Source: a virus
Lineage: Duplodnaviria > Caudoviricetes
Length of the DNA: 64,000 nucleotides
Virus record (IMG/VR): IMGVR_UViG_2851870198_000001
Span: 1 to 64,000 of that record
Reading direction: 5' to 3' (one strand)
Part shown: positions 16,066 to 63,999 of the stretch, in pieces
Position numbering within the stretch: position 1 is the stretch's first letter
Layout of the letters: each line of letters opens with the position of its first letter
Notes under the pieces: generated by a model
What the model saw: only the letters and a program-made list of their open reading frames with translations
Databases searched by the model: none
Told to the model about the DNA's origin: nothing
Position numbers and translations under genes: made by a program

Positions 16066-17478
16066 GTGGCTGGACAATTGAAGCGGGCCAAGAGGAAGCC
16101 CGGGGCCCCGGCTTCCCCGGCGCCTCAGCAGCCGGACGCCGGGCCCAAGTTCTTCGAGCTCGGCAGCGAGGCCGACGGCGACGCCCTCAAGCTCAAGACG
16201 TCGGACATCTCGGCGAACCCGTTCAACGACCGCGACCTGGGCGACGTGTCCGACCTCGCCAGCAGCATCGAAATGGATGGCCTGCTGCAGGACATCGTCG
16301 TAATGCACACCTCCGTCTTCGCCGAGCACTACCCGGACGCCGCCAGCGGCATCACGACCAAGTACGTGATCGCCTTCGGTGAGCGCCGGTGGCGTGCACA
16401 CCAGCACATCGGCAAGGAAGAGATCTCCGCGGTCCTCCGCAACGACGTCGCGCCGAAGATCCGCCGCGTGCTGTTCGTGGAGAACTTCCACCGCAAGCAG
16501 CTCAGCCCGATCGAGGAGGCCCGCCGCTTCCAGGCCCTGCATGAGGACGGGATGAGCTACCGCCAGATCGCGGAGGAGCTCAGCCTCGGCGGCCCCAACC
16601 ACGTCTCCCGCCGCCTGGAGCTGCTCCGACTGCCGACCGCGCTGCAGAACATCGTCGGCACCGAGGACGGGCCCGGCGTCACCCTGGCCCGGAGCATCCT
16701 CGCCCAGCTCGCCGAGCCCGATGAGCAGATCCGCGCGTGGGAGCTCATCCGCGACGAGAACCTGACCCTCGGGCAGGCCGTCGACCGCATCCGCAACGCC
16801 GACGCTGTTCCCCCGGGGAACACCCCGGCCGAGGAGACTGGCCCGGCGCCTGTTCCCCAGGGGAACACCTCCGGCGACAGCGAGGACACCGCACCTGTTC
16901 CCCAGGGGAACACCGACGTGCCCGCTCCGCGCACCACGGGCGACGCCCCCAAGCCCGCGGCCGCGAAGCCGAAGACACCCGCCGGCGCGCAGACCCTCGC
17001 CGCCGACCGGGACACCGCCGAACGCAACAACGCCTCCGCCGACCGCGACCAGGCGTGCCGTCAGCTCATCACCAACGGCAGCAAACTCACCCCCGACCAG
17101 CACGCCGCGCTGATGGGCCGCACGCTCCTCGCACCCATGCAGCAGGGCCCGGCCCGCACGCGCGCGCACCGCTGGCTGCGGGACGCCGGAGTCGCCGTGT
17201 TCAACATCAGCGACACCGACTCGTACTTCGAGGCCGTCCTGTCCTCCGGCCAGACCGAGCTCGTCAACCGCGTCGCCGTCGCTACCGCCGTCGCCGCCGG
17301 AGAAGTCCGCGCCCGGGACGGCCGCCGGCAGTGGGACAAGAGCGACGCCGAGCACGTACGGCTGCTCATCGAAACCACCGGCTACGTGCCCGAAACCGCG
17401 TGGGAACGGGCGCAGCTCGACAAGTACGGCGTCCCGCTTCCCGAGGCCGGCGAACCCGACCCCGAGCCCATCCACTGA
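16066..17478 (+). CDS. parB: ParB/RepB/Spo0J family partition protein
   Basis: ANPFNDR, LASSIEMDGLLQDI, CTP-binding box GERRWRA, ENFHRKQLSPIEEA, HTH SYRQIAEELS...VSRRLELLRLP. Confidence 0.9.
   Translation: MAGQLKRAKRKPGAPASPAPQQPDAGPKFFELGSEADGDALKLKTSDISANPFNDRDLGDVSDLASSIEMDGLLQDIVVMHTSVFAEHYPDAASGITTKYVIAFGERRWRAHQHIGKEEISAVLRNDVAPKIRRVLFVENFHRKQLSPIEEARRFQALHEDGMSYRQIAEELSLGGPNHVSRRLELLRLPTALQNIVGTEDGPGVTLARSILAQLAEPDEQIRAWELIRDENLTLGQAVDRIRNADAVPPGNTPAEETGPAPVPQGNTSGDSEDTAPVPQGNTDVPAPRTTGDAPKPAAAKPKTPAGAQTLAADRDTAERNNASADRDQACRQLITNGSKLTPDQHAALMGRTLLAPMQQGPARTRAHRWLRDAGVAVFNISDTDSYFEAVLSSGQTELVNRVAVATAVAAGEVRARDGRRQWDKSDAEHVRLLIETTGYVPETAWERAQLDKYGVPLPEAGEPDPEPIH
16806..16912. repeat. 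Three parS-like palindromes inside parB at exact 45-bp spacing (16806, 16851, 16896)
   Basis: TGTTCCCC(C/A)GGGGAACA, encoding VPPGNT/VPQGNT in the linker. Confidence 0.85.
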
Positions 17479-17492
17479 CGGGAGAACCCCGC

Positions 17493-18416
17493 ATGTCCCT
17501 CAAGACACTGCCCCGCCGCGAACTGCGGCCCGGCGGCCGTAACTGGCCGCTACTGCTCGCCGCGTTCATCATCACCGGCGGCAGCGCGAAGACCAGCACC
17601 ATCATGATGCTCGGGACCACCCTGGCCCTGCGCGGATACAAGGTGCGGATCTTCGACTTCGACCACCAGCGCAGCGCCAGTCACATCGCCTGCGCCATGG
17701 ACGAACTCCCCGCCGGCCACGGCACCATCTGGGAGCTCATGCACGGCGCGTCCCTGGAAGAGTGCAGCGTTCCCGCCCGTTACCTCGTCGCCCCGGCTGA
17801 TCCGGAGTCCGGCGCCGAAGCGGAGTACGAGGAGATCGACAACCTGCACATCGTGCCCGGCAGCCGCGACGTGAAGAACTTCGACACCGAGTCGGCTCAG
17901 GACGGCATGATGCTCACCTGGTTCCGGGAGCTGTGCGACTCCTACGAGGGCGATGACGACGTGTGGCTGCTGGACCTGCCCGCGTCGCTGTCCAAGCTCG
18001 TGGTCTCAGCGCTCATCCCGTTCCAGGCCGAGGACGAGATCGTGCCGCCGGTCCTGGTCACCTCCAAGGAGGAGACGGACCTCAAGGCCACGTTCGAGGA
18101 ACTCGCCGAGATGAGGCGGCAGCAGAACGCTCGCTCCCGCACCCGCAAGACCGAGCCGACCATCAAGCACATCCTGATGTGCGGCACCCCCACCCCCGGC
18201 CGCCCCGACACCGAGGGCGACCTGACGGTGGAGTCCATGGAACGCACCTACGGCGAGCACTTCGACCTGCATAAGGTCCGCTGGAGCACGGTCATCCGCC
18301 AGCAGCACCGTCGCCAGGCGCCCGTACACGCCTACGGCAACAAGAACGCCGCGCCCATCGAGGACTACAACAAGATCGCCACCGCGCTCGGGTTCAACGA
18401 CCTCAACCCGGCGTAG
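17493..18416 (+). CDS. parA: ParA family ATPase with atypical Walker A (307 aa)
   Basis: ATG 17493 with GGAG RBS; motifs TGGSAKTST, KVRIFDFDHQRSAS, NLHIVPGS, WLLDLPASL, C-terminal IEDYNKIA. Confidence 0.85.
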   Translation: MSLKTLPRRELRPGGRNWPLLLAAFIITGGSAKTSTIMMLGTTLALRGYKVRIFDFDHQRSASHIACAMDELPAGHGTIWELMHGASLEECSVPARYLVAPADPESGAEAEYEEIDNLHIVPGSRDVKNFDTESAQDGMMLTWFRELCDSYEGDDDVWLLDLPASLSKLVVSALIPFQAEDEIVPPVLVTSKEETDLKATFEELAEMRRQQNARSRTRKTEPTIKHILMCGTPTPGRPDTEGDLTVESMERTYGEHFDLHKVRWSTVIRQQHRRQAPVHAYGNKNAAPIEDYNKIATALGFNDLNPA

Positions 18417-26652: not shown

Positions 26653-28710
26653 TCAGAGAGCGAGGCCTGCGAGGGCTGCCTTCACCTCGGCGGGGTCGAG
26701 AGTCACCTCGTCGACCTCTTCGTCGGCCGGGGTGTTCCCCGGGGGAACAGCCGCCGGCTCGGTGTCGGCGTAGGGGATCTCGTCGTCGCCCACGGCCGCG
26801 GCCGTGTCCTCGGGGTAGTCGTCGTAGTCGACCTCGTTCTCGGGGGTGTCCTCGTCGTCGTCCCAGCCGTCGGTGACCGTGTACTCGCCCAGCCAGTCGT
26901 CCCCGCCGTCGGGCGCCTTGTCCATGGGCAGGCCCTTCTTCGTCAGGGCTCGCAGCAGCTTGTCGACGGTGGGCTTGAGGCCTTCCAGGTGCTCGGGCGT
27001 GGCGTCGGACACCTCGATCAGGGTGGCGGCGTCGTCCAGGGCGCGGCCGGTCGGCTGGATGTAGCGGGCGTGCACGGCCTCATCGACGCCCACGGGCCGT
27101 TCCACACCGGTGATGGGCGTGGCGACGGTGGTGAGCTTGACGGGCACGGGCACGCCGAGCGCCACGTCCCGGCCCGACGTGGTGTACGGGATGGAGTAGG
27201 ACTGCTCCCCGTCGTCGTAGCGGGTCACGATGACCCGGTCCGGGTAGGTCGCCTCGACACTCACGTAGCACTCGGCCGGCCCGGTGGGCCCGCTCGGGTA
27301 GTCGCCTTCCTTGCCGGAGGAGAACAGGGCGCGCGCGGCCTTGGCGAGTTCGTCGCGGATCTGCTCGAACGAGTAGGGCATGGGGCTGGTCATGATGCGC
27401 TCCGGGAGGTGAACGGGCTGAGCGGACTTGGCTTCGAGGACGACGCGCGCCGCCGACTTGGTCTCTGCGGCGTGGGTGGCGGGCTTGCCGCGGTTCTTGT
27501 CCCAGCCGCCGGAGGCCTTCGCCTCCACCACGATCCGGGCCGCGGACTTCCCTTCCAGCGGCGGGGCCGGGTCGCGCGTCGGACGGCCGGCGGGCTCACG
27601 CTGCGGCCGCGGGGCCGGGGCGCGCGCGGGTTCCTCCGTCGGGGTGTCGCCGAGCGGGATCTCGAACTCGTCCTCCCCGCGCACGACGTGCACGCTCGAG
27701 AAAGTCACTGGCGTGGACGGCACCGGCGGGATGTCGGGCAGGCTGTAGCCGAGGGTGATGTGCGGGGTGAACCCGTGATCGTCCCGGACCGCTTCCGAGT
27801 AGACGGACGTGGCCAAGGCCTGCGTGACGTACTGCCGCAGCTCGGCCAGGCCGGGCACGTCCACGGGTACCCAGGTGGGTTCGCCGTCCCCGCTGTCGGG
27901 GAAGCGGCCGATACCGCCGATGCTGCCTGTCAGCGGCCCGCTGTCGGCGACGGCCGGGGTGACGATGTCCCGCAGGTCGTCCGGGTGCCCGCCGAGCTCC
28001 CCCACGCTGCCGAGGTAGGCGAGCGTGATGTGCAGGTGCTCGGCCGCCGTGCCGTCGGGGTGCGCGATCTTCTCGGCGACGTCGCGGGGCACCTGCAACG
28101 CGACCATCACCCCGTCGCCGACTTGCTGCTCCGCCGCTTTCAGCTCGACAGCCGACCAGGTCGCTTTGAGCTCCATGGGCCGGCCCTGCTGCGTGCTGGC
28201 CGCCTTGACCTCGATGCTTCGTGTCATCGGGTGCGCGCCGTGCAGGACGGGGCTGATCTCGTACAGGTCCAGGTCGTTGATGATGCGTACGCCGTCGTGC
28301 CGCTTGGACGCGCCGCCCGGGGGGACCTTGAAGCCGATGGAGAACTGCGCCTCGCCGTTCTCGTGCCACTGCATCACCTGCTCGTAGGCGTCGCGGCCGC
28401 GGGTGGTGCGCAGGTTGTACTGGACGGTGGCGACCAGCGCACCGGCGGCCGCGGGCCACACCGCGCCGCCCGGGATGGACGCGAAGCGGGGGTCGCCCGG
28501 CATCCATTCCTCGACGGACAGGACGCTGCCGACCGGTTCCTTCCAGTCGTGGTGCCAGACCGGTTTCACGCGGCGCGAGTTGAGGGTGCGGGTGAACGCT
28601 CCGGGGAGGATCAGGTCTTCGACGTCGTCAACCACGCCGGTCACGGCGTAGATGGCGCGGACGATGCCCTTCTTCCCGCGGCGGCGGACGGTGGGCGGCG
28701 AACTCGGCAC
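26653..28710 (-). CDS. HK97-family prohead protease fused to a 2H phosphoesterase (2'-5' RNA ligase/Acb1-like) and an acidic tail
   Basis: Protease motifs DLILPGAF, WHHDWKEPVG, FSIGF, LYEISPVLHGA; 2H motifs HITLAYLG (28021-28032) and FTPHITLGY (27751-27762). Confidence 0.88.
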   Translation of the reverse strand: MPSSPPTVRRRGKKGIVRAIYAVTGVVDDVEDLILPGAFTRTLNSRRVKPVWHHDWKEPVGSVLSVEEWMPGDPRFASIPGGAVWPAAAGALVATVQYNLRTTRGRDAYEQVMQWHENGEAQFSIGFKVPPGGASKRHDGVRIINDLDLYEISPVLHGAHPMTRSIEVKAASTQQGRPMELKATWSAVELKAAEQQVGDGVMVALQVPRDVAEKIAHPDGTAAEHLHITLAYLGSVGELGGHPDDLRDIVTPAVADSGPLTGSIGGIGRFPDSGDGEPTWVPVDVPGLAELRQYVTQALATSVYSEAVRDDHGFTPHITLGYSLPDIPPVPSTPVTFSSVHVVRGEDEFEIPLGDTPTEEPARAPAPRPQREPAGRPTRDPAPPLEGKSAARIVVEAKASGGWDKNRGKPATHAAETKSAARVVLEAKSAQPVHLPERIMTSPMPYSFEQIRDELAKAARALFSSGKEGDYPSGPTGPAECYVSVEATYPDRVIVTRYDDGEQSYSIPYTTSGRDVALGVPVPVKLTTVATPITGVERPVGVDEAVHARYIQPTGRALDDAATLIEVSDATPEHLEGLKPTVDKLLRALTKKGLPMDKAPDGGDDWLGEYTVTDGWDDDEDTPENEVDYDDYPEDTAAAVGDDEIPYADTEPAAVPPGNTPADEEVDEVTLDPAEVKAALAGLAL
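26733..26749. promoter_or_regulatory. parS-like palindrome inside the protease CDS tail
   Basis: TGTTCCCC-G-GGGGAACA (VPPGNT on the minus strand). Confidence 0.6.
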
Positions 28711-53656: not shown

Positions 53657-56125
53657 TCACTGGTCACCGCCCTGCTCGCGGGTGCGGTAGCGCAGCCGGC
53701 AGCGGCAGTTGATGGTGAGGTGGATGGGGGCGAGCTGATCGCCGGGGAACCGCATCGGGTAGCCGTCGACCTGGTACGGCTCGGCGACGGGCAGGGTGGT
53801 GCCGTCCACGGCTTCGTGGGCGGGCCGTACGCGGTCGTCGCGGCGGGTGACCCAGGTGCGGATGATGCCCGGGCCGATCGCCGCGGCGGTGGCCTCCGCG
53901 GAGCCGTTGACGGTGGCGACGGCCGCTGTCTCCGCGGCGTCGGTGATCTTCGTGGCGGCCATGTCGCGGAACGCGGTCCGCGCGAGCGCGACCAGGTCGT
54001 CAATGTCCTCGGTGACGTCCTGCCCTTGTGTGAGCAGGGTGGTGATCGTGTCGAGGAAGGCGCGGGCGATGTTCTCGGCGGCCGCCACGGCGTCCAGGAC
54101 CGCGGCCGTGATGCGGGGCGATGCCTCCGCCGGCAGGGGCACGCCGAAGGCGTCCGCGGTGCGCTGGGCGGTGGTGGCCGCGATCCGGGTGAGGGACCGG
54201 GCGAGCGCGCTGGTGACTTCCTCCAGCCACCGGTCGGTGCCGACGATGCGGTCGACGTCCAGCGGAGTGGTGCCGCCGCGGCTGTCCTGGGGGCTCTGCG
54301 GCCGCCAGAACCGGGTGCCCTTGCGGGCCTTGGGGGAGCGCAGGCGGGCGGTGATGACGCCCTCCTGCCGGTCGAACAGGGACTCCAGCGCCAGGGCTAC
54401 GGCGTCGCGGGCGCGGTCGAAGTCGGTGTCGGTGACCTCGAACTCCGGCCCGACGTGCGGGCTCTGGTGGGGGAGTGCCTTGGTCTGCAGGGTGCGGGCG
54501 TCCTCGACGGCGGCCGCGGCCGCGCCCGGCTCCGTCTCGGGCATCTCGCGGGCGTCGGCGACGGCGGCGGCCGCTTCACCCGGCGCCGAGGGGACGGCGT
54601 CCGCGCGGGCCTCGGCGACCGCGCCGGCCGCCGCGCCCCGTTCGGCGCCCATGGCGTCGGCAGGCGCTTCGCCGCCCTCGGCGCGGGCCTGCGCGACCGC
54701 TTCCGCCGCGGCGCCCTCCCCGGGTCCGGCCCCGGGGTCGAGCGGCGCGTTCGGATCGCCGCCGGCCCCGGGCATGGGACCGCCCATGCCCATGCCCATG
54801 CCGCCTTGGTCGCCCTGGATGCCGAGCGCGGCCGCGTCCTGCGGGCGCAGCGGAACGGGCGCCTTCTGCGGGGAGATCCACAGGGCGCGGGAGTGCGCGT
54901 TGTTGTAGGCGGGCAGGCCCGCGCGGCGCCGGTACTCGTCAATGGAGATCAGGCCCGCCTCGAACTCCTCGCGGGCCTCCTGGCGGCGCTTGCGGCGCGG
55001 CAGCTCCAGGGCCTGCACGGTGGACGTGTCGTAGCGGATGGACAGGTCGGCGCCGCCGAGGTCACCGGCGAACGCGTCAGCGATCAGCGACAGGTGGCCG
55101 AGCTCGGTGTGAATCCAGAACCCGTACTCTTCCTGCTCCGCGTTGTCGAAGGTGCGCCCGGAGGCGTTGCCGGTGACCGACTCGGGAACACCGAACGCGC
55201 CGAGAATCTCGATCTTCGCGTTCTGCGCGGCGTGCTCGTAGGCCATCTCACGCGGGCGGGTGGCGAGGTCGACGTACGTCATGCCGCCCTGCCCGGCGCC
55301 GACGACGGACACGTGCCCGGCGTACTCGGAGCCGGGCAGGAACCGTGCCTCCAGCCGGTCCATGTCCGCGTCGGTGAGCGAGCTGGTGTCGACGGCCACG
55401 ATCCCGCCCGGGCGCGCGTCGTTCTTGATGAACGCCACGTTGTACATGCGCGACAGGTGGTCGAGCTCGATGCTGATGCCGGCCGCTTCCAGCGGGGTCT
55501 GCCCGGAGAACGGATCGGTCGGGTGCGGCTCACGGATCCAGCGCACGCGTTCGGGTTCGAGCTCACGGACGTGCCCGTACAGGGTCGTGAACTCGAAGTG
55601 CTTGATGTACTCGCCCTTGTCGTCCGGCACGGGGATGACCCGGTCCGGGGGCAGCAGGTCGAGGCGGGTGATGGTGCCGCGGTTGGAGCGCGTGACCTCC
55701 AAGAACGCGCCGCGCTTGGACAGCAGGATCTGCGCGGACAGCCGCCGCCGAAGCTGCGCGCCGGACTCCAGCGGGTTCGCCTTCGGGCCGTTCAGCAGCC
55801 GCAGCAGCGGATGGTCGTCTATGACCTCCTCGAACTCGCCGTCTTCGGTGAGGCCGCGCCCGATCTGCAGGGGGAGCCGGGCGGCGTGCTTGCCCATGGT
55901 GTCGATGGCCTTGTAGACCCAGATGACACGCTCGTATCCCTCGGTGACGACACGGCCGATGTCCCAGCCGTCCGCGCGGCCTTCGGTGCCCCAGATGTTG
56001 GTGGTACCGGCGTAGGCGGTGGACGTGTACCCGCCCGTCCACGTGATCGTTTTCGACTCGTCCGGTTGGGGGCCCGGCGTCTGCAGCATGTTGCGCAGCG
56101 CGGGGAACCAGCGGCGTCGCGCCAT
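53657..56125 (-). CDS. HK97-type portal protein fused to a C-terminal MuF (gpF-like) domain
   Basis: Portal motifs WVYKAIDTM, DHPLLRLLN, LLPPDRV, GQTPLEAA, EILGAFGVP; MuF motif RTWVTRRDDRVRPAHEAVDG...INCRC. Confidence 0.92.
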   Translation of the reverse strand: MARRRWFPALRNMLQTPGPQPDESKTITWTGGYTSTAYAGTTNIWGTEGRADGWDIGRVVTEGYERVIWVYKAIDTMGKHAARLPLQIGRGLTEDGEFEEVIDDHPLLRLLNGPKANPLESGAQLRRRLSAQILLSKRGAFLEVTRSNRGTITRLDLLPPDRVIPVPDDKGEYIKHFEFTTLYGHVRELEPERVRWIREPHPTDPFSGQTPLEAAGISIELDHLSRMYNVAFIKNDARPGGIVAVDTSSLTDADMDRLEARFLPGSEYAGHVSVVGAGQGGMTYVDLATRPREMAYEHAAQNAKIEILGAFGVPESVTGNASGRTFDNAEQEEYGFWIHTELGHLSLIADAFAGDLGGADLSIRYDTSTVQALELPRRKRRQEAREEFEAGLISIDEYRRRAGLPAYNNAHSRALWISPQKAPVPLRPQDAAALGIQGDQGGMGMGMGGPMPGAGGDPNAPLDPGAGPGEGAAAEAVAQARAEGGEAPADAMGAERGAAAGAVAEARADAVPSAPGEAAAAVADAREMPETEPGAAAAAVEDARTLQTKALPHQSPHVGPEFEVTDTDFDRARDAVALALESLFDRQEGVITARLRSPKARKGTRFWRPQSPQDSRGGTTPLDVDRIVGTDRWLEEVTSALARSLTRIAATTAQRTADAFGVPLPAEASPRITAAVLDAVAAAENIARAFLDTITTLLTQGQDVTEDIDDLVALARTAFRDMAATKITDAAETAAVATVNGSAEATAAAIGPGIIRTWVTRRDDRVRPAHEAVDGTTLPVAEPYQVDGYPMRFPGDQLAPIHLTINCRCRLRYRTREQGGDQ

Positions 56126-56540: not shown

Positions 56541-56744
56541 TCACCAGGGCAGCCAGTCGCCCGAACCGCTCCCGGGGCTGCCGGGGCGGGACTCACCGGC
56601 GATGACGATGCAGGCGATGCCGAGCCAGGTGGCGACGGCCACGAGGATGCCGACCGTGGTGGCGACCTGGTCGTCACCGGTGTGTGCGTAGGTGAGGCAG
56701 CCGGACAGGCCGCCGAGGAGCAGGCCGAGGAGGAAGACGCGCAC
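56541..56744 (-). CDS. Small membrane protein (67 aa)
   Basis: GTG 56744 with AGGA RBS; two hydrophobic helices. Confidence 0.5.
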   Translation of the reverse strand: MRVFLLGLLLGGLSGCLTYAHTGDDQVATTVGILVAVATWLGIACIVIAGESRPGSPGSGSGDWLPW

Positions 56745-56754
56745 GGCGGGGGTC

Positions 56755-57198
56755 CTATCGGGCGGGGCGGGAGACGCCCGCGACGTAGGCGCTGATGCCG
56801 CGCCGCTGAATGTGGCCGCCGGGCACGAGCTTGGCGTTCGGCGGCGGGGTGGGGATCTTCCGCTTGGCGCGCACCGTCTGGTCGCCGCCGATGAGGTGCC
56901 GGTTGTCGACCAGGGCCTCGCAGTCGCGTCCGGCGACGTCCTCGTAGGGGCGGCGGCAGGCCCGGCAGTACACCTCAAGCGCATCGACGCGGATACCGCC
57001 CGCGGCAGTGAAGGAGCCGCGGAAGTCGGCTTGCTTCGCGACCCGGTCCTCGACCTTGATCTCCGCGGCGACGATCCACACGTGGGCGAGGGAATCGGTG
57101 GGCGCGGGGGCGGGAGGGGGCGGCGGGCTGTCGATCTGCTCGAAGAGATCAGCGAAGGGGGCGATCTCCAGTTGGTCCCGCACTACCGCTGTCGTCAC
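56755..57198 (-). CDS. Hypothetical protein with CxxC...C...H (possible Zn site)
   Basis: YCRACRRPYEDV...C...HLIGG; good codon bias. Confidence 0.65.
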   Translation of the reverse strand: MTTAVVRDQLEIAPFADLFEQIDSPPPPPAPAPTDSLAHVWIVAAEIKVEDRVAKQADFRGSFTAAGGIRVDALEVYCRACRRPYEDVAGRDCEALVDNRHLIGGDQTVRAKRKIPTPPPNAKLVPGGHIQRRGISAYVAGVSRPAR

Positions 57199-57302
57199 GT
57201 GGAAGTCCTCCGGTATCTCAGTGGCCCCCCAGCGTCAACGTCTCGCTGTCGTATGGACGGAGTGACCGCCCGTGGCGTTACACCTGGGCATGAGGAGGAA
57301 CG

Positions 57303-57332
57303 CAGGAACCCCCGCCGTGGCGGGGGTTCCTG
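57303..57332 (-). terminator. Intrinsic terminator closing the radical SAM-NUDIX operon
   Basis: CAGGAACCCCCGCC-GT-GGCGGGGGTTCCTG perfect stem 17 bp after the NUDIX stop. Confidence 0.75.
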
Positions 57333-57348
57333 GGCCAGGGAGGGACTT

Positions 57349-57780
57349 CTACCAGCCGTGCACGGAGAACGGTTCGCCCTTGAGGTAGTGGGCGATGCCC
57401 AGTGCGTTGTACGGGACGGTGTTGTCGGGGAGTTGGTCACTGGGGTGCCAGGACAGGCCCGCGCACTTGTGGGGCTCCATGTTGCGTGGCTCGCCCTCCC
57501 AGTGCCGGGCCGCGAAGAACCAGCCGATGCGGGGCTCCCCCTCCGGGTTGCGGAAGTGCATGACGTGCACGACCCGTAGGGCCTCCCGCGCGACGATGAT
57601 GCCGGTCTCTTCCAGGCCCTCGCGGATCACGGCCTCGAACACGTCCTCGCCGTCATCGAGTTTCCCGGAGGGGAGGTTCAGCATTCCGTCGGCGTAGCCG
57701 GTGCCCTGCCGTTCGGCAAGGCACACAGCTCCGTCCCGCTCCAGGATGAGCATGACGTCGATCACGGGCTGTTGGGGCAC
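57349..57780 (-). CDS. NUDIX hydrolase
   Basis: Nudix box GKLDDGEDVFEAVIREGLEETGI; GEPRNMEPHKC. Confidence 0.92.
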   Translation of the reverse strand: MPQQPVIDVMLILERDGAVCLAERQGTGYADGMLNLPSGKLDDGEDVFEAVIREGLEETGIIVAREALRVVHVMHFRNPEGEPRIGWFFAARHWEGEPRNMEPHKCAGLSWHPSDQLPDNTVPYNALGIAHYLKGEPFSVHGW

Positions 57781-57835
57781 TGTGCTTCGTCCTCCGACCG
57801 GTGGGGCGCTTGCCGGTAGGGGACTCTAGCGGCGC

Positions 57836-58450
57836 TCAGCCTGCGAGCAGCCCCATCTCTTCAACGCGTTTCACGGTCCACTGGACACGCTCCGCCGCGG
57901 TGAGGCCGAGCGGCATTTCCAGGATCGGCAGGTTCGGGACCCTGCTGAGGGTGTCGCGGATCGCGTCGTCCGCTGGGTCCTGCAGCGCGAGGACTTTCTC
58001 CCGCATGCGGTCGCCGCCGGCCTTCTGGTCGTACCGGTCGGAGCAGTACACGACCGCGTCGTACGCGTGAGGCATCCAGGCCCGGCAGAAGGCATCGGCC
58101 GCGCCCAGCACGGTCGCGGTCGCCGGTTCGGTGAGGTCCAGGACCAGGCTGGCGAGTGCCAGAACGTTCGCCGGGGTCTTGTCGGTGATGAGGACCTGGT
58201 GGTGGCGGGCGGCGCGCAGGGGCACCGTGAAGTGCTGCGCGAAGAGGTCGACCTCTGCCACGAGATCGAAGGTCCCTTGGTTGTGGAGGACGATGTCCTC
58301 CATGAACGGGCTGGTGCGGGCCGGCTCCCCGGTGCAGGCGGCGTTGATGCCCTGCTCACGCAGGTGCGCGGTCAGCGCGTGGACGAACGTCGTCTTGCCG
58401 GCCGCTTGGGTGCCTTCGACGGCGATAACGCGGCAGTCGCGGATGGGCAC
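57836..58450 (-). CDS. P-loop nucleoside/nucleotide kinase (dTMP kinase / NadR-Ttd14-like)
   Basis: IAVEGTQAAGKTT, GEPAR, LITDKT, YDAVVY. Confidence 0.75.
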   Translation of the reverse strand: MPIRDCRVIAVEGTQAAGKTTFVHALTAHLREQGINAACTGEPARTSPFMEDIVLHNQGTFDLVAEVDLFAQHFTVPLRAARHHQVLITDKTPANVLALASLVLDLTEPATATVLGAADAFCRAWMPHAYDAVVYCSDRYDQKAGGDRMREKVLALQDPADDAIRDTLSRVPNLPILEMPLGLTAAERVQWTVKRVEEMGLLAG

Positions 58451-59232
58451 GAGTCCTCCAGGAGTGCGGTGAAGGTGGGAGTTTCCAGCCAGCCCCAGGC
58501 GCCTTTGGCGCCGTCGGCGATGGCTCGGTTGACGTTCAGGCCGGGGTTCGGCCGGTGGGCGAGTCCGGCGGTGAGGGCGGCGACGTAGGCCGTCGAGAGG
58601 GAGTGGCGGAGGTTCAGCACGCTGACGCGTTCACGGCCTTCGGGCTCGCCGCCCTCGATCCAACGACGGTGCCAGGCAGGCATGGACGCCTTGCGTAGCT
58701 CGGGCTGGGTGACGTCCAGGCCGAGCTCCGTGCAGACGTCCACCAGGCGGCGGGAGGCGCCGGTGAGCAGGTGGCCGGCGTCGTACCGGGTGTCCACGTA
58801 GTGGCTGGCGTTCGGGTCGGCGTCGCGGCGCTGCCGCCACTGCTCGCGGGCCTGTTGCAGGGCGGGGACGGCGTCCGTGGGGGCGTTGGCCTCCAGCACG
58901 GACAAGTCCGCGCAGAACTGGTGCCCGGTGATGATGGTGGCCGTGTCCGCGGCCGCGGTGACCGTGTCCGCGGCGTGCCGGATCATGGCGTCCATCTCCC
59001 CGGGCTCCTCGACGTAGACACTGGTCCACTCGTACGGCACGTCTGTGAGGTCGGCCGTGCCACCGGCGGGCAGGTCGAGCCAGGCGACGCTGTAGCAGAA
59101 GGGCCGCTGACCGTTCTTGATCCTGTAGTTCTTCGTCCACTCGACATCGACGGACGCGATGCGCACCGTCCCGGAGCGCAACGGCGGGGGCGCCAAGGGG
59201 CGGGCGCTGGTCAAGCTGCTCTTGATGATCAT
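58372..59232 (-). CDS. DEDD/DnaQ-like 3'-5' exonuclease-fold protein
   Basis: ExoI-like ASVDVEW; ExoII-like ITGHQFCADLSVL; YVDTRYD; RLVDVCTELGL. Confidence 0.6.
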   Translation of the reverse strand: MIIKSSLTSARPLAPPPLRSGTVRIASVDVEWTKNYRIKNGQRPFCYSVAWLDLPAGGTADLTDVPYEWTSVYVEEPGEMDAMIRHAADTVTAAADTATIITGHQFCADLSVLEANAPTDAVPALQQAREQWRQRRDADPNASHYVDTRYDAGHLLTGASRRLVDVCTELGLDVTQPELRKASMPAWHRRWIEGGEPEGRERVSVLNLRHSLSTAYVAALTAGLAHRPNPGLNVNRAIADGAKGAWGWLETPTFTALLEDSCPSATAALSPSKAPKRPARRRSSTR

Positions 59233-59290
59233 GGGGTGTTCCTGCCGTAGGACGGGGCCGCGCGCCCGGTGCGCGCGGCCCCGTCGGACG

Positions 59291-60079
59291 CTACTCGTTG
59301 CGCGTGGCCGCCACGCCGCCCAGGAGAGAAGGCGCTGCCTCCCACGCGGCTTCGGACAGCGCGTCGAAGATGCTCAGCGGTCCCTCCCAGTGGAGCCGGC
59401 CCGTGTGCTTGCCCCCGAGGAGCGCCGTGGTGAGCGCTGAGGACAGGACGCTTCCGGCCAGGGCGTCCGGGGAGAACGCCGCGGCCCGTTCCTCCGCGAG
59501 GGCCTCACAGGCTTCCTGCGCGCTGGCCTGCTGCTGCTCGCCGGCGAACGACTTGAGCGGGTTCAGGCCGTGCGCGCTGGCGGTGTCGCTGATGAGTCCG
59601 GCCGGGCCCAGGTCGTGGCTGGTGTCCACACACAGGGCGATTCCCCGCTCCCGGGTGGTGCGGTCCTTCCAGGCGTCGGCGATGGCGGTCACGCCCGGGT
59701 AGCGCGGCTCGCCTTCGGCGCGGGGGAGCTGCTGGAGGACGTGCAGGTCGTCGGCACCGTTGTGCCAGGCGAGGACCTGCGACTTGCGGCGGGCCTGGAC
59801 GAGGAGGACGTCGAGCTGCCGGACGATCGCCGCCGTCTCGCCCATGGCCTGCGGTAAGAGGACCCGGTACCCGAAGTTCATGAGCGGGGCGGAGACGGGA
59901 ACGGACTGGGTGCGGTGGATCTTCATGAGCACCGCGGCGGCGCCCATGAGGATCGGTTCATCCCCGGCCTCACCCCACAGCAGAGAGATACCGGTCAGCC
60001 ACGTCGCCGGTTTCTGTACGGGCCGGGTGACCGACCCGAACGGCGTTTCGGGCCAGCCGAGGTTGGTGCGTTCCAGCAC
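59291..60079 (-). CDS. Degenerate exonuclease-fold paralogue; contains a TTA codon
   Basis: LAWHNGADDLHVL and CVDTSHDLG parallel the motifs of the neighbour; no ExoI acidic pair; TTA at 59855-59857. Confidence 0.5.
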   Translation of the reverse strand: MLERTNLGWPETPFGSVTRPVQKPATWLTGISLLWGEAGDEPILMGAAAVLMKIHRTQSVPVSAPLMNFGYRVLLPQAMGETAAIVRQLDVLLVQARRKSQVLAWHNGADDLHVLQQLPRAEGEPRYPGVTAIADAWKDRTTRERGIALCVDTSHDLGPAGLISDTASAHGLNPLKSFAGEQQQASAQEACEALAEERAAAFSPDALAGSVLSSALTTALLGGKHTGRLHWEGPLSIFDALSEAAWEAAPSLLGGVAATRNE

Positions 60080-60080
60080 G

Positions 60081-61058
60081 TCACACCCCCTGGGTGACGG
60101 CGTGGATTGAGCGGCCGACGTACTTGGAGATGTGGTTCTCCTTGAAGCGGTACCGCTCCCAGATGGCGCTGATGGGCTCCTCCAGGACGTTGCCCAGGTT
60201 CTCCCACAGGTCCGGCGCGTCGTAGACCGGCCACGCGCGGGCGATGCCGTTCGGCTCCACGACGATCATGTGCCCCTCGTTCTCGGGGGTCCACGCCGTC
60301 AGCCGCAGTGCCGGGGACCACTGCATCTCAGCGCGCTGCTCCTTGAGCCGCGCGAACGTGGTCTCGGCTTCCTCGGTGGTGATGAACTCGTGGTCGGCGA
60401 GGTTCAGCGCGTTGCCCTTGCGCAGGGGCAGGATCAGCTTGACCTTCGTGGCGTCCAGGACGTCGGCGATCTGCACGGTGTACGGCAGCACCGACAGGGT
60501 GGAGCGGTAGACCACGGCCGACAAGGCGAGGGGGATGCCGGCCTCTTGCAGCACCCGCACGCCGGCCATCGTCTTGTCGTAGTCGCCACGGACGCGTTTG
60601 AAAGCGGCGCGGGGTCCCTCGAACCCGACATTGGCGTATGCGATCTTGTCGGCGATGTTCTTCGCGTGGTCGAGGGCGTGTGTGGCGTTCGTGGGCACGG
60701 CCACGATGTGGTGCCCGTGGAAGATGTCCACGACCTCGCTGAAGTCTTTCCGCATCAGCGGCTCACCGCCGGACAGGAAGACCCGGCTGACGCCGGAGAG
60801 GTTCTGGCGGATGGTGTCGAGCTGGTCGAGGGTGGGGTCCGGCATCTGCAGGGTTTCGGAGCAGAACGAGCAGTCGAAGTCACAGCGCTTGGTGACCTGC
60901 ACGATCACTGACAGCGGCGCGGTGAGCGAGTCCGCGATGGCCTTGATGCTGAGGTCTGCCGGGGCGTCGAAGTGCTGGCCGTTGAAGGCGTATCCGACGC
61001 CTCCGCCGAGTTCCTGCCGGTTCTGCCTGGGGATATCGGGCATTCCGAGGTCGGTCAC
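60081..61058 (-). CDS. Radical SAM enzyme without SPASM cysteines (325 aa)
   Basis: GTG 61058 with GGAGG RBS; CDFDCSFC, FLSGGEPL, PTNA, RVRGDYDKTMAGVRVL. Confidence 0.9.
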   Translation of the reverse strand: MTDLGMPDIPRQNRQELGGGVGYAFNGQHFDAPADLSIKAIADSLTAPLSVIVQVTKRCDFDCSFCSETLQMPDPTLDQLDTIRQNLSGVSRVFLSGGEPLMRKDFSEVVDIFHGHHIVAVPTNATHALDHAKNIADKIAYANVGFEGPRAAFKRVRGDYDKTMAGVRVLQEAGIPLALSAVVYRSTLSVLPYTVQIADVLDATKVKLILPLRKGNALNLADHEFITTEEAETTFARLKEQRAEMQWSPALRLTAWTPENEGHMIVVEPNGIARAWPVYDAPDLWENLGNVLEEPISAIWERYRFKENHISKYVGRSIHAVTQGV

Positions 61059-61213
61059 GGTTCCTCCGTGTTCAGTTGGATGGAGCAGAACGGCCCGGCG
61101 CGGGGCGATGACCTGCCGTGGGGGAACACGGATCGGGCAGTTCGTTCCCGCGCCGGGAGTTGTGCCTGTCCGGCGGCTCGGCCAGGGGACATCCGGGCCG
61201 CCGGACAGGGGCT

Positions 61214-61903
61214 TTATGCGGTGCGCTCCAACTCCCACAGCAGTTGGTCCAGGCCGACGGCCCGGAAGGAGCCGAGTCGGCGCACCATTTGGGAGGCGAG
61301 GATGGTCGGCAGGAGTTTGTGGCCGTACGGGATCGGCCCGTCGGGGCGCTGCACGACCTGCACGCCGTGTTCGCCGTAGCCGTAGCCGACGCCGTTCACC
61401 CCGTACATGGGCGCGCTCTGCGCGAGGAACACCATCGGGTCGGGTGTGAGGTGCGGGCACAGGTCGGCGGCGGGGCGTGCGTGCTGGGCACACACCGGCG
61501 GCTGGTTCGTGAGGATCACCGGCTGCGCGGGGTCCACGGTGTCCGGGCCGGCGAGGAAGATGAACCCGAGCGGAGTCCGGGCGGGCTCGGCGCAGACCTG
61601 GCAGCGCAGCGCTTGCATGCAGCCGCGTTGCCGCAGGGGGTGCATCATCCGCCACTGCGGCCGGCCCGTCGGCCGTCCCTGGTCATCGACCGGGCCGAGC
61701 CCGCAGCGCGCCCACAGCACGCCGCGCAGGTCACGGTCGCGGGGGTCTTCGTCGGCGTAGCGCAGCCGGTAGCGGTCCGGCCCGATCGTGGTCAGCATCA
61801 GGTTGTCGGGGGCGGCTTCCTCGCCCTCGCGCTGGATGACGAACGGGACGATGCGGGAGTCGGGGAGCACGGTGGTCTTTCTCGTGGTGCGGTTGGTGGT
61901 CAC
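61214..61903 (-). CDS. Streptomyces-type hypothetical protein with Cys motifs (229 aa)
   Basis: GTGA overlap start; MHPLRQRGCMQALRCQVC, PPVCAQHA...CPHL. Confidence 0.7.
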   Translation of the reverse strand: MTTNRTTRKTTVLPDSRIVPFVIQREGEEAAPDNLMLTTIGPDRYRLRYADEDPRDRDLRGVLWARCGLGPVDDQGRPTGRPQWRMMHPLRQRGCMQALRCQVCAEPARTPLGFIFLAGPDTVDPAQPVILTNQPPVCAQHARPAADLCPHLTPDPMVFLAQSAPMYGVNGVGYGYGEHGVQVVQRPDGPIPYGHKLLPTILASQMVRRLGSFRAVGLDQLLWELERTA

Positions 61904-62325
61904 GCGGCCTCCTTGAGGCAGCGGATGGCGGCAAGCCGGTCGTGGAGTTCGTTGACGGTCCACCCCAGCCGGCGCAGGTGCGCTATCTCCGCCTGGCGGC
62001 CGTGAGGCAGGGGATCGGTGTGCAGGGCGCGGGCGCGCAGGACGAGCTGCGCCGCGGCGGTGTCCCGCTCGGCCTCGCCCGCCACGGCGATGGTGACCAG
62101 CCGGGCGAGGTGCTCGCGGAGCCGGTCGGCGAGCTGGGCGGTCTCTCCTTCGGCCGGGGGGACGTCGTCCAGGACGGCGGCCACGTCGTCCAGCAGGGCG
62201 CCACCGTCGAACGCGGTCCAGCCGCGAAGCCGGTCCAGCACGGTGGTGAGCTGCCCGCTGTCCAGGGGCGGCGTCCACGGGCGGACGGGACGCGTGAAGC
62301 GGGGGACGGTGTTGCGGGCGGTCAT
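61900..62325 (-). CDS. DUF6415-like small helical protein (141 aa)
   Basis: ATGA overlap start; LADRLREHLARLV...HLRRLGWTVNELHDRL; usual neighbour of XRE/ATPase cassettes. Confidence 0.6.
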   Translation of the reverse strand: MTARNTVPRFTRPVRPWTPPLDSGQLTTVLDRLRGWTAFDGGALLDDVAAVLDDVPPAEGETAQLADRLREHLARLVTIAVAGEAERDTAAAQLVLRARALHTDPLPHGRQAEIAHLRRLGWTVNELHDRLAAIRCLKEAA

Positions 62326-62894
62326 GGCCTGCCGTCCACGGCGAGGGTGCACCAGGTGGTGGTGCCGTTCTGCTCTGTTCCCCATGTGCCGCCGTGAGCA
62401 GCGGCGAGGCAGTTGACGAGGAAGAGGCCGCGACCGCGCTCGGCGTCGTCGGGGGCGTTGCGCGCGACCGGCTGGCCGGGTGTCTCACCGTGGACGGCCA
62501 GGCGCAGGACGCCGTCCCGCACCGTCACGGTCATGGTGATCTGATTACCGTCACCGTGCTGGATGGCGTTGGTGACGAGTTCGGAGACGATGAGCGTGGC
62601 GTCGTCCACGAGGGCCTCAAGGCCGCAGTAGCGCAGCCGGGCCGCGGTCAACTTCCGGGCCATCCCCACCCGGCGCGCGTCCCGTTCGGGGATCTCGCCC
62701 CCGGCGCGGGGCGGACAGACCTCGAAGCACACGCTCATCCGGTCGTCGTCCCGCCGCAGGGGCTCGGGAAGGCCGTGGTCGGGGAGTAACCGGTCCGCCG
62801 CAGGCGCTGTCAGGGGAAGAGCAGCGGCTTCTAAGGCGCTTCGACGGGTGCGCCCCGGGGCCGGGAAGTGGGCAGTCGTCATGGTCGGCTCCAT
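62322..62894 (-). CDS. HATPase_c ATP-binding protein (RsbW/anti-sigma-like); two TTA codons
   Basis: LIVSELVTNAIQHG, AERGRGLFLV, WG...TTTWCTL; TTA at 62832-62834 and 62787-62789. Confidence 0.85.
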   Translation of the reverse strand: MEPTMTTAHFPAPGRTRRSALEAAALPLTAPAADRLLPDHGLPEPLRRDDDRMSVCFEVCPPRAGGEIPERDARRVGMARKLTAARLRYCGLEALVDDATLIVSELVTNAIQHGDGNQITMTVTVRDGVLRLAVHGETPGQPVARNAPDDAERGRGLFLVNCLAAAHGGTWGTEQNGTTTWCTLAVDGRP

Positions 62895-62933
62895 GTCGAA
62901 ATGGCGTGTGACGACATGGTGGCTAACCGTGAA

Positions 62934-62969
62934 GGCCCCAACTATCAGTACTTGTTGATAGTTGGGGCC
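62934..62969. promoter_or_regulatory. AT-rich 14-bp inverted repeat (operator or terminator)
   Basis: GGCCCCAACTATCA-8nt-TGATAGTTGGGGCC between the XRE and ATPase genes. Confidence 0.65.
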
Positions 62970-62988
62970 AAGGCTTCACCCGGCGTGA

Positions 62989-63999
62989 CTAGTGGGCGGG
63001 TGCGGGGCCCAGCCACGACCCGTAGGACAGGAAGCTGTCTGGGAGGCGGCGGTGAGCGGCCTCCAGCCCGGCGTACGTCTCCCGCACGGTCGGGTGGTAC
63101 TTCGCCTGCTGCGGGGCGGCCTTGCGCGCCTTGAGCAGGTTCTCGAAGGAGGCGTCGATGTTGCCCGTCCACAGCAGGGAGCGGGCGACCTCTGCGTAGT
63201 GGTGGCTGGTCCGGGAGTTGGGCCACGAGTCCGGGATGTACGTGGTGCGGGCGGCCTCCACGGACTCGCCGTACTGGTCCAGCTCGGCGAGGACGGAGAC
63301 GCGGTGGACGCCCACGTTGGTCGGACCGAAGGCGAGCCAGTGGACCTTCATCGCTTCGCCGGTCTCGCTCGCGATCTGCTCGGCTTCACCGAGGTGGACG
63401 TGCGCTTCGTCCGCGTCGTGCGCCCGGCCGGCCAGCACCGCGGCGCCCAGGTGGAGCTGCCCGGTGACGACACGGCGTTCGCGGGTGGGCTCGGCCTGTT
63501 CCAGGGTGGTCAGGCCGAGACGCACCAGGCGGGTGCCGGTGCGGTACTTGCCCTCACGCAGGTAGGTCAGGGCGCGCAGGTACTGGTACATGCCGCCCAG
63601 GACGGCGTCTGACCCACGCTGGGCGGCCCAGTCGAGGCGGGCCAGCGCGAGCTGGGCGAGGTCGGGATAGCCCAGCTTCGCCGCGACGTCGTAGGCCGTC
63701 CGGTAGAAGCTCGCCAGTGTCAGCCAGCCCTCCCGGGTCTGAGCGGTGTGCGCGGCCGTCGTGCCTTCCTCGATGAGACTCGAGACTCGCGACGCGGCGC
63801 TCTTGATGTTCCCCGCCCGTACATCCGCGCAGAGCCGTTCCGCTTCGCGGTGCAGTTCCTCCGGTCGGCGGGCCTGGACGTCGGGGTCGGGGCCCAGGTC
63901 GTACACGTCGAGGGCTTCACGGATCGGCCTTATCAGCACGTCGAGTTGGTCGGCGCGCAACTCGTCGGCGTAGGGCTGACCCTGAATGGTCACCACTTC
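62989..63999 (-). CDS. XRE-family regulator, C-terminal helical/TPR-like part (HTH beyond the window edge)
   Basis: IQGQPY, IREALDVYDL, GQLHLGAAVLAGR, WLAFGPTNVGVHRV, APQQAKYHPTVRE are typical of Streptomyces XRE proteins; frame is open to the edge. Confidence 0.8.
   Translation of the reverse strand, partial: EVVTIQGQPYADELRADQLDVLIRPIREALDVYDLGPDPDVQARRPEELHREAERLCADVRAGNIKSAASRVSSLIEEGTTAAHTAQTREGWLTLASFYRTAYDVAAKLGYPDLAQLALARLDWAAQRGSDAVLGGMYQYLRALTYLREGKYRTGTRLVRLGLTTLEQAEPTRERRVVTGQLHLGAAVLAGRAHDADEAHVHLGEAEQIASETGEAMKVHWLAFGPTNVGVHRVSVLAELDQYGESVEAARTTYIPDSWPNSRTSHHYAEVARSLLWTGNIDASFENLLKARKAAPQQAKYHPTVRETYAGLEAAHRRLPDSFLSYGSWLGPAPAH

Follow-up and report, generated by a model that had tools for sequence, protein, structure and literature searches.

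The window, meaning the whole 64,000-nucleotide stretch analysed here, is the first 64 kb of the 125,903-bp virus record IMGVR_UViG_2851870198_000001 (CheckV completeness 95%, GC content ~0.70) and comes from a Gilgamesh-like Streptomyces phage. It carries a compact cassette of five genes that encode a radical S-adenosylmethionine enzyme (radical SAM enzyme, rSAM), two exonuclease-like proteins (exoA and exoB), a nucleotide kinase and a NUDIX protein. The favoured reading, held at a probability of roughly 45%, is that this is an undescribed nucleotide-modifying conflict or defence cassette, present here as prophage cargo. Under that reading the cassette would be horizontally mobile and self-contained and would combine four functions: an rSAM without SPASM features, one or two DEDD-type proteins that resemble the proofreading domain of family B DNA polymerases (PolB), a nucleoside monophosphate (NMP) kinase similar to thymidylate kinase (TMK), and a nucleoside triphosphate (NTP) pyrophosphohydrolase. 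The pyrophosphohydrolase differs by lineage, being a NUDIX protein in actinomycetes and MazG elsewhere.

The five packed open reading frames (ORFs) run on the minus strand from 61058 down to 57349, cover ~3.7 kb and are followed by a hairpin. The initial annotation of the window had described five co-oriented, tightly packed genes here, and all five are present as follows:

60081-61058, minus strand: rSAM, 325 aa; GTG start; homologues begin MT.LG.P
59291-60079, minus strand: exoA, 262 aa; start 1 nt past the rSAM stop
58372-59232, minus strand: exoB, 286 aa
57836-58450, minus strand: kinase, 204 aa; 79-nt overlap with the tail of exoB
57349-57780, minus strand: NUDIX, 143 aa
57299-57336, minus strand: GC-rich hairpin with a 13-bp perfect stem and a 4-nt loop, 12 nt past the NUDIX stop

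The hairpin is very stable (dG -30.8 kcal/mol, z -4.38; none of 200 shuffles was equally stable) and is probably the terminator that closes the operon. The strong terminator claimed earlier for this site is borne out in its stability but not in its signal, as the hairpin has no U-tract and a consensus scan of 56600-62000 found 0 U-tract terminators. The same scan found 0 sigma-70-like promoters.

The cassette is a conserved unit. A scan of one genome per prokaryote species gave 109 confirmed stretches, and 80 loci were retained from these. Their six-frame ORFs were searched with hidden Markov models (HMMs) built from the cassette's own alignments, giving frame-independent counts, and genes at high-GC loci were called with a purpose-made caller based on GC content at third codon positions (GC3). 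Twelve loci with too little sequence 3' of the rSAM gene were dropped; the 68 judgeable loci include two shorter ones that carry the complete cassette. The 80 retained loci span Streptomyces, Kitasatospora, Micromonospora, Amycolatopsis, Actinomadura, Frankia, Nocardia, Solirubrobacterales, Dormibacteraeota and further groups. The order rSAM-exoA-exoB-kinase-NUDIX, all on one strand, is found at 45 of the 68 loci, one of which has an extra MazG gene. Chance falls far short of explaining this arrangement, which recurs in many genera of actinomycetes, and the genes co-occur widely as one unit. A form without exoB (rSAM-exoA-kinase-NUDIX) accounts for 11/68 loci, all but one from the Frankia group. 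The kinase is found at every locus (68/68), as is at least one exonuclease-like gene (68/68), and NUDIX or MazG is found at 62/68.

The family also extends beyond the actinomycetes. An exhaustive rSAM profile search returned 13,748 hits at E<=0.001, and a metagenome scan yielded 33 loci. Three low-GC metagenome contigs (L091, L093 and L094) carry an rSAM, an exoB-type exonuclease, a P-loop kinase and MazG. Among the 33 metagenome loci, an exoB-type gene adjoins the rSAM in 14 and MazG is present in 9; many of the remaining loci are short contigs or belong to a sister rSAM subfamily.

The kinase and the pyrophosphohydrolase give the cassette its nucleotide-centred character. The kinase is a P-loop protein of thymidylate-kinase type with the motifs GTxAxGKTT, EPAR and DKT. 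Two Pfam models fall just under their cutoffs (AAA_28 at 26.2 bits; Thymidylate_kin, PF02223, at 22.9 against 27), TIGR00041 scores 23.3 against 83, phrog_761 (thymidylate kinase) matches at 2e-8, and the best profile match in the Protein Data Bank (PDB) is Mycobacterium tuberculosis TMK at E 1.6e-3. By these scores, the kinase is TMK-like and not a TMK orthologue. The NUDIX protein scores 59.5 bits against PF00293 (cutoff 21.1), which makes it a MutT-like NUDIX, and its Nudix box is intact, with the residues of G39-x5-E45-x7-R53-E54-x2-E57-E58 invariant. Profile matches in the PDB are a MutT/NUDIX protein at 1e-17, NUDX1, NUDT15, MutT and a CTP pyrophosphohydrolase, while the MutT equivalog models stay under cutoff (40.7 against 148). 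Judged by these profiles, the protein is of the MutT/NUDT15/NUDX1 NTP-diphosphatase type.

At some loci MazG (PF03819) takes the place of NUDIX: at L081 with an E-value of 3.6e-5, and at L091, L093 and L094 with 2e-8 to 6e-8. At metagenome locus L092, MazG directly follows the rSAM, and on contig L095 the two are fused into a single MazG-rSAM protein (P0305) that is followed by an exoB-type gene. The initial annotation had proposed a nucleotide-centred system; the obligatory kinase and the replacement of NUDIX by free or fused MazG, a second kind of NTP pyrophosphohydrolase, agree with that proposal.

The rSAM has exactly three cysteines, C59, C63 and C66, in a CX3CX2C motif, and SGGEP at residues 96-100. 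It lacks the SPASM/twitch auxiliary-cluster cysteines, as the first inspection of the motifs had indicated, and in an alignment of 15 homologues the C-terminal half has no conserved cysteine. A score of 50.1 bits against PF04055 Radical_SAM (cutoff 29.5) places it in the radical SAM superfamily. It is the most conserved gene of the cassette, with 58-97% identity across Actinomycetota, and its homologues form 869 clusters at E<=0.001, with identities of 60% or more for each of the best 120. Invariant Arg and Lys residues are numerous in the family, a pattern that would be compatible with a phosphorylated substrate.

The nearest named relatives of the rSAM depend on the method used. In a PDB profile search, PqqE (7.5e-10) and SkfB (4.1e-9) come first, followed by BlsE and MoaA; the viperins are weaker, at E ~1e-4, and align to query residues 33-119 only. 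The prokaryotic viperin (pVip) models of PADLOC score 33.2 bits (model positions 2-105 of 257) and 27.5 bits (5-88 of 262). Viperin membership by sequence is rejected, since the pVip HMMs match the N-terminal core only and the PDB viperins rank below PqqE, SkfB, BlsE and MoaA. A pVip search of 401 genomes, in which 14 controls were also silent, gave no match; the cassette-bearing genome G001 had none at E<=1e-30. The AlphaFold2 (AF2) model of the rSAM (mean predicted local distance difference test, pLDDT, 81.6) is a partial TIM barrel that matches many radical SAM structures: SkfB at Z 22.2, SuiB at 21.8, viperin at 21.4, PqqE at 19.9, anSME at 19.0, BlsE at 18.7 and MoaA at 18.6. The viperin match (5vsl; root-mean-square deviation, rmsd, 2.5 A over 236 aligned residues; model 47-303 on chain 72-337) takes in the C-terminal part of viperin and has the lowest rmsd among SkfB, SuiB and viperin, whose Z-scores are tied within 1 unit. 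The likeness to viperin suggested by the initial annotation is seen in the predicted fold, which matches SkfB and SuiB equally well, but not in the sequence.

Other named families were also rejected. MoaA fails on TIGR02666 (40.6 against 284), on TIGR02668 (49.5 against 325) and on the missing C-terminal second-cluster cysteines. QueE fails with phrog_2076 at E 0.002, absence from the best 25 of 48 NCBIfam hits and a Z of 11.7 for Bacillus subtilis QueE; the idea that the rSAM is a QueE that feeds a DpdA-like gene of the phage is rejected on the same NCBIfam, PHROG and structure scores. All NCBIfam hits of the rSAM are far under their cutoffs (PqqE, 55 against 381), and a search of the ESM Atlas returned generic "radical SAM protein" clusters only. 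The rSAM is a member of the viperin/MoaA/SPASM branch without auxiliary clusters and is not of the viperin family.

The proximity to PqqE, SkfB and SuiB raises the possibility that the enzyme is a peptide or protein maturase that modifies a peptide or one of the exonuclease-like proteins. The best sequence and structure matches are indeed maturases of ribosomally synthesized and post-translationally modified peptides (RiPPs), and the N-terminal beta strands of the rSAM align with the N-terminal parts of SkfB and SuiB. Such a role is nonetheless very doubtful. The enzyme has three cysteines only and no SPASM/twitch cluster, its N-terminal extension of ~45 aa is not long enough to form a full recognition element, a gene caller that ignored ORFs <60 aa revealed no conserved small ORF, and all of its partners in the cassette are nucleotide enzymes.

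The two exonuclease-like proteins are paralogues (hhalign probability 99.5%, E 3.3e-23, 231 columns). The AF2 model of exoB (pLDDT 88.8) has a DEDD 3'-5' exonuclease fold. In VIA-align its matches are the exonuclease domain of yeast polymerase alpha (Z 14.3, rmsd 2.9 A, 186 residues), Pyrococcus abyssi PolB in editing mode (Z 13.8), the Klenow exonuclease (11.6), WRN (10.9), MrfB (10.0), the epsilon subunit (9.4) and RNase T (8.5), with 58 chains at Z>=8. Foldseek agrees (polymerase alpha at 3e-4, RNase T at 7e-4). The RNase H-like fold is thus seen in the model of exoB and is predicted for exoA from its homology to exoB.

The active-site motifs divide the pair. exoB has D29-x-E31 (Exo I) and H104-x4-D109 (Exo II), and D29, E31, H104, D109, D147, D151 and H210 do not vary across exoB-type proteins, whose sources range from Streptomyces to contigs with a GC content of 29%. 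In Exo III, H210 is present and the usual Asp five residues on is absent. WTKNY, DTRYD and SRRLVDVC are further invariant motifs. No Pfam model reaches its cutoff on exoB (RNase_H_2, 15.1 against 22), its profile finds nothing useful among PDB sequences, and its homologues form 821 clusters at E<=0.001. Across 33 sequences, exoA lacks any acidic residue at the positions aligned with DxE. An invariant Arg pair and an N-terminal NLxWPxxPFG motif are retained, and exoA is predicted to be an inactive DEDD-like protein. This matches the earlier description of one protein with both DxE and HxxxxD and another without DxE. exoA has no Pfam, NCBIfam, PHROG, PADLOC or PDB sequence match. It is the fastest-evolving gene of the cassette, with 25-35% identity outside Streptomyces where the rSAM keeps ~60%, and its 62 homologue clusters are, where named, all from Streptomyces.

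Variation among loci bears on the history of the pair. The deep-branching loci L078 and L081 and the metagenome loci L103-L105 have a single gene that combines the exoA-type N-terminal motif with the catalytic residues of exoB, which gives it the look of the ancestor before duplication. In the Frankia-type cassette, the catalytically dead copy is the only one left, and this speaks against an obligatory editing nuclease.

The sister rSAM subfamily (~38% identical) has a different conserved neighbourhood, seen at L106, L107, L109, L110, L111, L116 and L122. Its genes lie beside a bona fide Thymidylate_kin (1e-28 to 1e-32), AP_endonuc_2, HhH-GPD and large helicases, among them a 970-aa DEAD/HamB-like helicase, and sometimes UvrD-PDDEXK. 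This neighbourhood may be another undescribed DNA-directed system. More distant relatives are fused to AP_endonuc_2 (P0336, 25 cluster members), to a PfkB kinase (P0402) or to sugar isomerases. Links of the wider rSAM family to nucleotide and sugar enzymes are recurrent, which favours nucleotide chemistry for the cassette. On a 6.5-kb metagenome contig, three distant relatives stand in tandem (L121:711-6141; each E 5e-33 to the family profile).

The cassette proteins could also be read as a system for the modification or repair of nucleic-acid ends. In such a system, the DEDD-like proteins would hold a DNA or RNA 3' end, the rSAM would modify or repair the terminal nucleotide, and the kinase and pyrophosphatase would process ends or released nucleotides. 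Spore photoproduct lyase and RNA-modifying radical SAM enzymes act on polymers. The translational coupling of rSAM and exoA, the constant presence of an exonuclease-like gene at the judgeable loci, the look of a binding subunit in the dead exoA, the AP_endonuc_2, HhH-GPD glycosylase and helicases beside the sister subfamily, and the repair exonuclease MrfB among the structural matches of exoB all fit this explanation. It is unlikely, however: the kinase is TMK-like and not polynucleotide-kinase-like, MutT- and MazG-type pyrophosphatases act on free NTPs, the MazG-rSAM fusion better fits the channelling of a small molecule, and a patchy, mobile distribution is unusual for a repair function.

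The favoured reading, a nucleotide-modifying conflict cassette, can be laid out as a pathway. The analysis shows gene content, folds, motifs, conservation, mobility and defence-island neighbours; the substrate, the product, the order of the steps, the antiviral role and the role of the exonucleases are inferences. Having both the kinase and the NTP pyrophosphatase makes sense if each acts on a species of its own. A (deoxy)nucleoside 5'-monophosphate would first be supplied by the pyrophosphohydrolase, perhaps along with the active exonuclease, which would release 5'-monophosphates from nucleic acid. The rSAM would alter this monophosphate by radical chemistry. The dedicated kinase would then re-phosphorylate the altered nucleotide, which host kinases would refuse, and bring it into the NTP or deoxynucleoside triphosphate (dNTP) pool. 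There it would poison the replication or transcription of an invader, as the products of viperin do. The inactive exoA, translationally coupled to the rSAM, may be a nucleic-acid- or substrate-binding partner or a sensor, and the active exoB may work on 3' ends in substrate supply or in removal of the analogue.

A stronger form of this pathway would be a new chemical antiviral immunity. Here a viperin-fold rSAM would rewrite a (deoxy)NMP, possibly into a chain terminator or polymerase poison, the kinase would arm it and the pyrophosphatase would set the pool. A PolB-like exonuclease pair acting in trans would feed the pathway or excise the analogue from host 3' ends, which would amount to self-immunity by stand-alone proofreading. 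The combination is unlikely to be right in full. The initial annotation had proposed a modified-nucleotide system with self-protection. The widespread unit, the active/inactive pair and the nucleotide-centred gene content bear out part of this; the rSAM is not a viperin by sequence, and a part for NUDIX and the exonuclease pair in immunity or editing is conjectural.

The distribution of the cassette is patchy. At E<=1e-60 the rSAM was found in 0/400 other sampled Actinomycetota and 6/400 other Streptomyces. It matched Gilgamesh alone (two records) among 50,697 phage records, and four loci in IMG/VR, all of which (4/4) have all five genes; PLSDB plasmids gave no rSAM match at E<=1e-40. Flanks differ between loci and include transposases, TraG-like coupling proteins, a relaxase and Replic_Relax/Rep genes. 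The pattern is that of a mobile accessory module taken up by one phage lineage. This mobility and patchiness, the terminator-closed block in a temperate phage and the precedent of viperins with kinases together make a conflict or defence role the likeliest of the readings considered.

Some copies stand among defence genes. On contig L093, one side of the cassette has a complete cyclic oligonucleotide-based antiphage signalling system (CBASS; cyclase 2.5e-141, patatin phospholipase effector 8.6e-96, E1-E2 1.3e-171, JAB 2.8e-55) and a DNA methyltransferase, and the other side has a NERD-helicase (1.2e-66) and Tiamat TmtA (1497 bits). The small contig L091 resembles a Rep3 plasmid and encodes a resolvase and, next to the cassette, a PDC-S02/YhcG nuclease. 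PDC-S13 and a DpdF/PsyrT-like helicase lie near the L092 copy, and L094 runs on into a HEPN gene. For the actinomycete flanks, 150 of 199 candidate proteins within three genes were scanned against PADLOC. Six of the 150 matched at E<=1e-8: Cas3 twice, QatA, DrmC, mad2 and an E1-E2-like protein. Enrichment of defence islands in the actinomycete flanks is not claimed, as six in 150 is too weak.

The cassette itself is not a catalogued system. A full-text literature search found no description of the gene set, and the Burroughs et al. 2015 survey of nucleotide-centred conflict systems could mention parts of it. Against PADLOC-DB v2, the cassette genes gave only weak pVip, PDC-S07 (NUDIX, 33.6 bits) and P-loop matches, and the exonuclease-like proteins have neither a match nor a model there. 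The combination was not recognised as a described system in the initial annotation, and these searches uphold that view. Passages of PMC13092281 name MazG, a predicted nucleotide kinase and other nucleotide-modifying domains as predicted, unvalidated defence domains; "radical SAM" does not occur in its text by full-text search.

In the phage, the cassette is placed between a regulatory region and the portal gene of a temperate, plasmid-like element. Its nearest surroundings in the window are the following:

53657-56125: portal-MuF fusion (phrog_2662, E 2e-81)
61214..63996, minus strand: upstream context outside the core, with a 229-aa protein (phrog_30088), a DUF6415 protein, a HATPase_c_2 anti-sigma-like ATPase and an XRE/HTH regulator

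Gilgamesh has a 129-kb genome, and its gp39 is 90% identical to the rSAM of the window; gp39-gp43 are the same five-gene block. Two small genes, the portal-MuF fusion and a giant ORF follow 3' of the block in Gilgamesh and in the window alike. The head module was said to lie next to the cassette. This is right for the portal-MuF fusion, which is close, but the capsid and protease genes lie 25 kb beyond it, past a 7694-aa ORF. On this evidence the cassette may well be a moron, carried as cargo by a Gilgamesh-like Streptomyces phage or plasmid-prophage, a view held with the same caution as the reading of which it is part.

A scan against PHROGs took in 113 of the 127 called proteins of the record. 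It found tail, capsid, terminase, lysis, ParA/ParB, integrase-region regulators, SSB, Erf, RusA, ligase and a DnaC-like loader; none of the 113/127 proteins scanned matched a DNA polymerase. The same phage encodes a DpdA-like queuine-tRNA-ribosyltransferase (phrog_1279, 4e-70; L084:1660-2619, G000 83660-84619) and a Mom-like DNA modification protein (phrog_1384, 9e-36; L084:3752-4255, G000 85752-86255), both outside the window. Their presence suggests that the phage DNA is modified by DpdA-like or Mom-like routes unrelated to the cassette.

The phage setting brings in a further explanation, in which the cassette hypermodifies the DNA of its own mobile element against restriction. The pyrophosphatase would remove a canonical dNTP, the rSAM would alter the deoxynucleoside monophosphate (dNMP), and the kinase would return it for phage or plasmid DNA. 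This follows the three-enzyme logic of T4 gp56, gp42 and gp1, and it fits both the carriage by Gilgamesh-like phages and in plasmid-like and conjugative contexts and the investment of this phage in DNA modification through its DpdA-like and Mom-like genes. Set against this are the rarity of the cassette in phages (one phage among the 50,697 records, and the IMG/VR loci) next to 109 stretches in bacterial genomes, the many chromosomal copies without phage genes within 7 kb, and the lack of a DNA polymerase among the scanned phage proteins, which means that host DNA would be modified too. On balance such hypermodification is rather improbable.

The upstream genes also recur. WhiJ-type regulators similar to the genes at 61900-63996 of the window are found beside the cassette in other actinomycetes, and among the 80 loci HATPase_c_2 flanks the cassette in 18, XRE-DUF5753 in 12, DUF397 in 4 and Methyltransf_19 (PF04672) in 21. 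These neighbours may regulate the cassette or may just be markers of the same variable genome regions. This recurrence of regulator and methyltransferase genes would suit a small nucleoside or nucleotide metabolite, an antibiotic or a signal, made under WhiJ-type regulation with the exonuclease-like proteins as resistance or accessory factors. The radical SAM enzymes of nucleoside and sugar antibiotics (BlsE, DesII and AbmM) among the sequence and structure matches, and the PfkB and sugar-isomerase fusions of distant relatives, are in keeping with such a product. Against this, a typical cluster for such a metabolite would be larger and more varied, the cassette has no transporter, glycosyltransferase or tailoring genes conserved alongside it, and the same set is found in low-GC defence islands and in a phage. 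A metabolite of this sort is improbable.

Several findings weigh against the conflict reading. By sequence, the rSAM is nearest to PqqE and SkfB, which modify peptides, and not to nucleotide enzymes. A kinase and a pyrophosphatase in one operon also fit other orders of the steps, and the MazG-rSAM fusion is known from a single 2.3-kb metagenome contig. Exonuclease activity is not universally needed, as the Frankia-type copies show. The clear defence islands come from three metagenome contigs, and the actinomycete flank matches are a modest enrichment at best. The DNA-modification genes of the phage leave room for a role in favour of the phage.

If the conflict reading is correct, the cassette adds to viperin a second radical-SAM route, independent of it, to antiviral or conflict nucleotides, one that phages, plasmids and islands spread among Actinomycetota and low-GC bacteria. 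The cassette would make a new nucleotide analogue with its own activating kinase, of interest to antiviral chemistry and enzymology, and would give a first function to a large family now annotated as "radical SAM protein" or "hypothetical protein" (the 869 rSAM and 821 exoB-type clusters). In itself, a stand-alone, proofreading-like pair with an active and an inactive member is already out of the ordinary. With its small size and its presence in a cultivable phage (Gilgamesh, on S. lividans), the cassette makes the question directly testable.

Other features of the phage lie away from the cassette. The 7694-aa ORF is a single reading frame at 30248-53332 on the minus strand, directly downstream of the portal-MuF fusion; its Gilgamesh counterpart, gp48, has 4624 aa. 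Its sole Pfam signal is an SNF2/ResIII/Helicase_C helicase at residues ~2061-2629, and it resembles the "polyvalent proteins" of phages and conjugative elements named in the title of PMC5512222. At 26653-28710 on the minus strand, a 685-aa protein has a head-maturation-protease match (phrog_80) and an RNA-ligase-family match at residues 184-356 (phrog_14859, phrog_2659), an unusual fusion for a head module. ParB-like and ParA-like partition genes at 16066-18416 on the plus strand are set among tail genes, and many of the Streptomyces contigs that bear homologues are 125-131 kb long. Gilgamesh-like phages may persist as extrachromosomal plasmid-prophages, although Gilgamesh also has a tyrosine integrase.

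Among known systems, the cassette is close in parts to several. With the DEDD exonucleases, that is the proofreading domains of family B and A polymerases, RNase T and DnaQ, exoB shares the fold, the DxE of Exo I, the Asp of Exo II and a conserved His. It differs in standing alone, in the missing Exo III Asp after H210, in its extra motifs and in being duplicated into a pair whose motifs predict one active and one inactive member. The SPASM/twitch maturases (PqqE, SkfB, SuiB and anSME) are the best sequence and structural matches of the rSAM; unlike them, the rSAM lacks auxiliary-cluster cysteines and a full recognition domain, and it comes without a precursor peptide. MoaA (GTP 3',8-cyclase) and the BlsE/DesII types share the barrel and act on nucleotide or nucleoside substrates, whereas the rSAM scores only 40-50 bits on MoaA models with cutoffs of 284-325 and is missing the cysteines of the second, C-terminal cluster. 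By sequence, the rSAM falls outside the viperin, MoaA, QueE and SPASM families alike.

Phages hypermodify their nucleotide pools through modules such as the T4 dCTPase, dCMP hydroxymethylase and dNMP kinase, or MazZ, DatZ and PurZ of Z-genomes. The cassette is like these modules in that a single unit brings together an NTP pyrophosphohydrolase, an enzyme that modifies nucleotides and an NMP kinase. It is unlike them in that the modifier is an rSAM and not a relative of thymidylate synthase or PurA, in that it is mostly bacterial and not phage-borne, and in having no dedicated polymerase.

The pVips and the vertebrate pair of viperin and CMPK2 offer the nearest parallel. The cassette rSAM has the CX3CX2C and SGGEP motifs and a predicted fold that superposes on viperin, it is linked to a gene of the NMP-kinase superfamily, and some copies are in defence islands. 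A passage of bioRxiv 10.1101/2023.09.13.557418 gives a neighbouring kinase, mostly CMPK2-related, for 12% of bacterial viperins, whereas the kinase of the cassette is obligatory (68/68). The cassette also adds the DEDD protein or proteins and the NTP pyrophosphatase. It would be categorically new if a radical modification at the monophosphate level were joined to proofreading immunity in trans, which is an unlikely outcome. Tentatively, the cassette belongs among the radical-SAM, nucleotide-based conflict systems, and its closest likeness is to a viperin-plus-kinase pair with a pyrophosphatase and stand-alone proteins of the proofreading type added to it.

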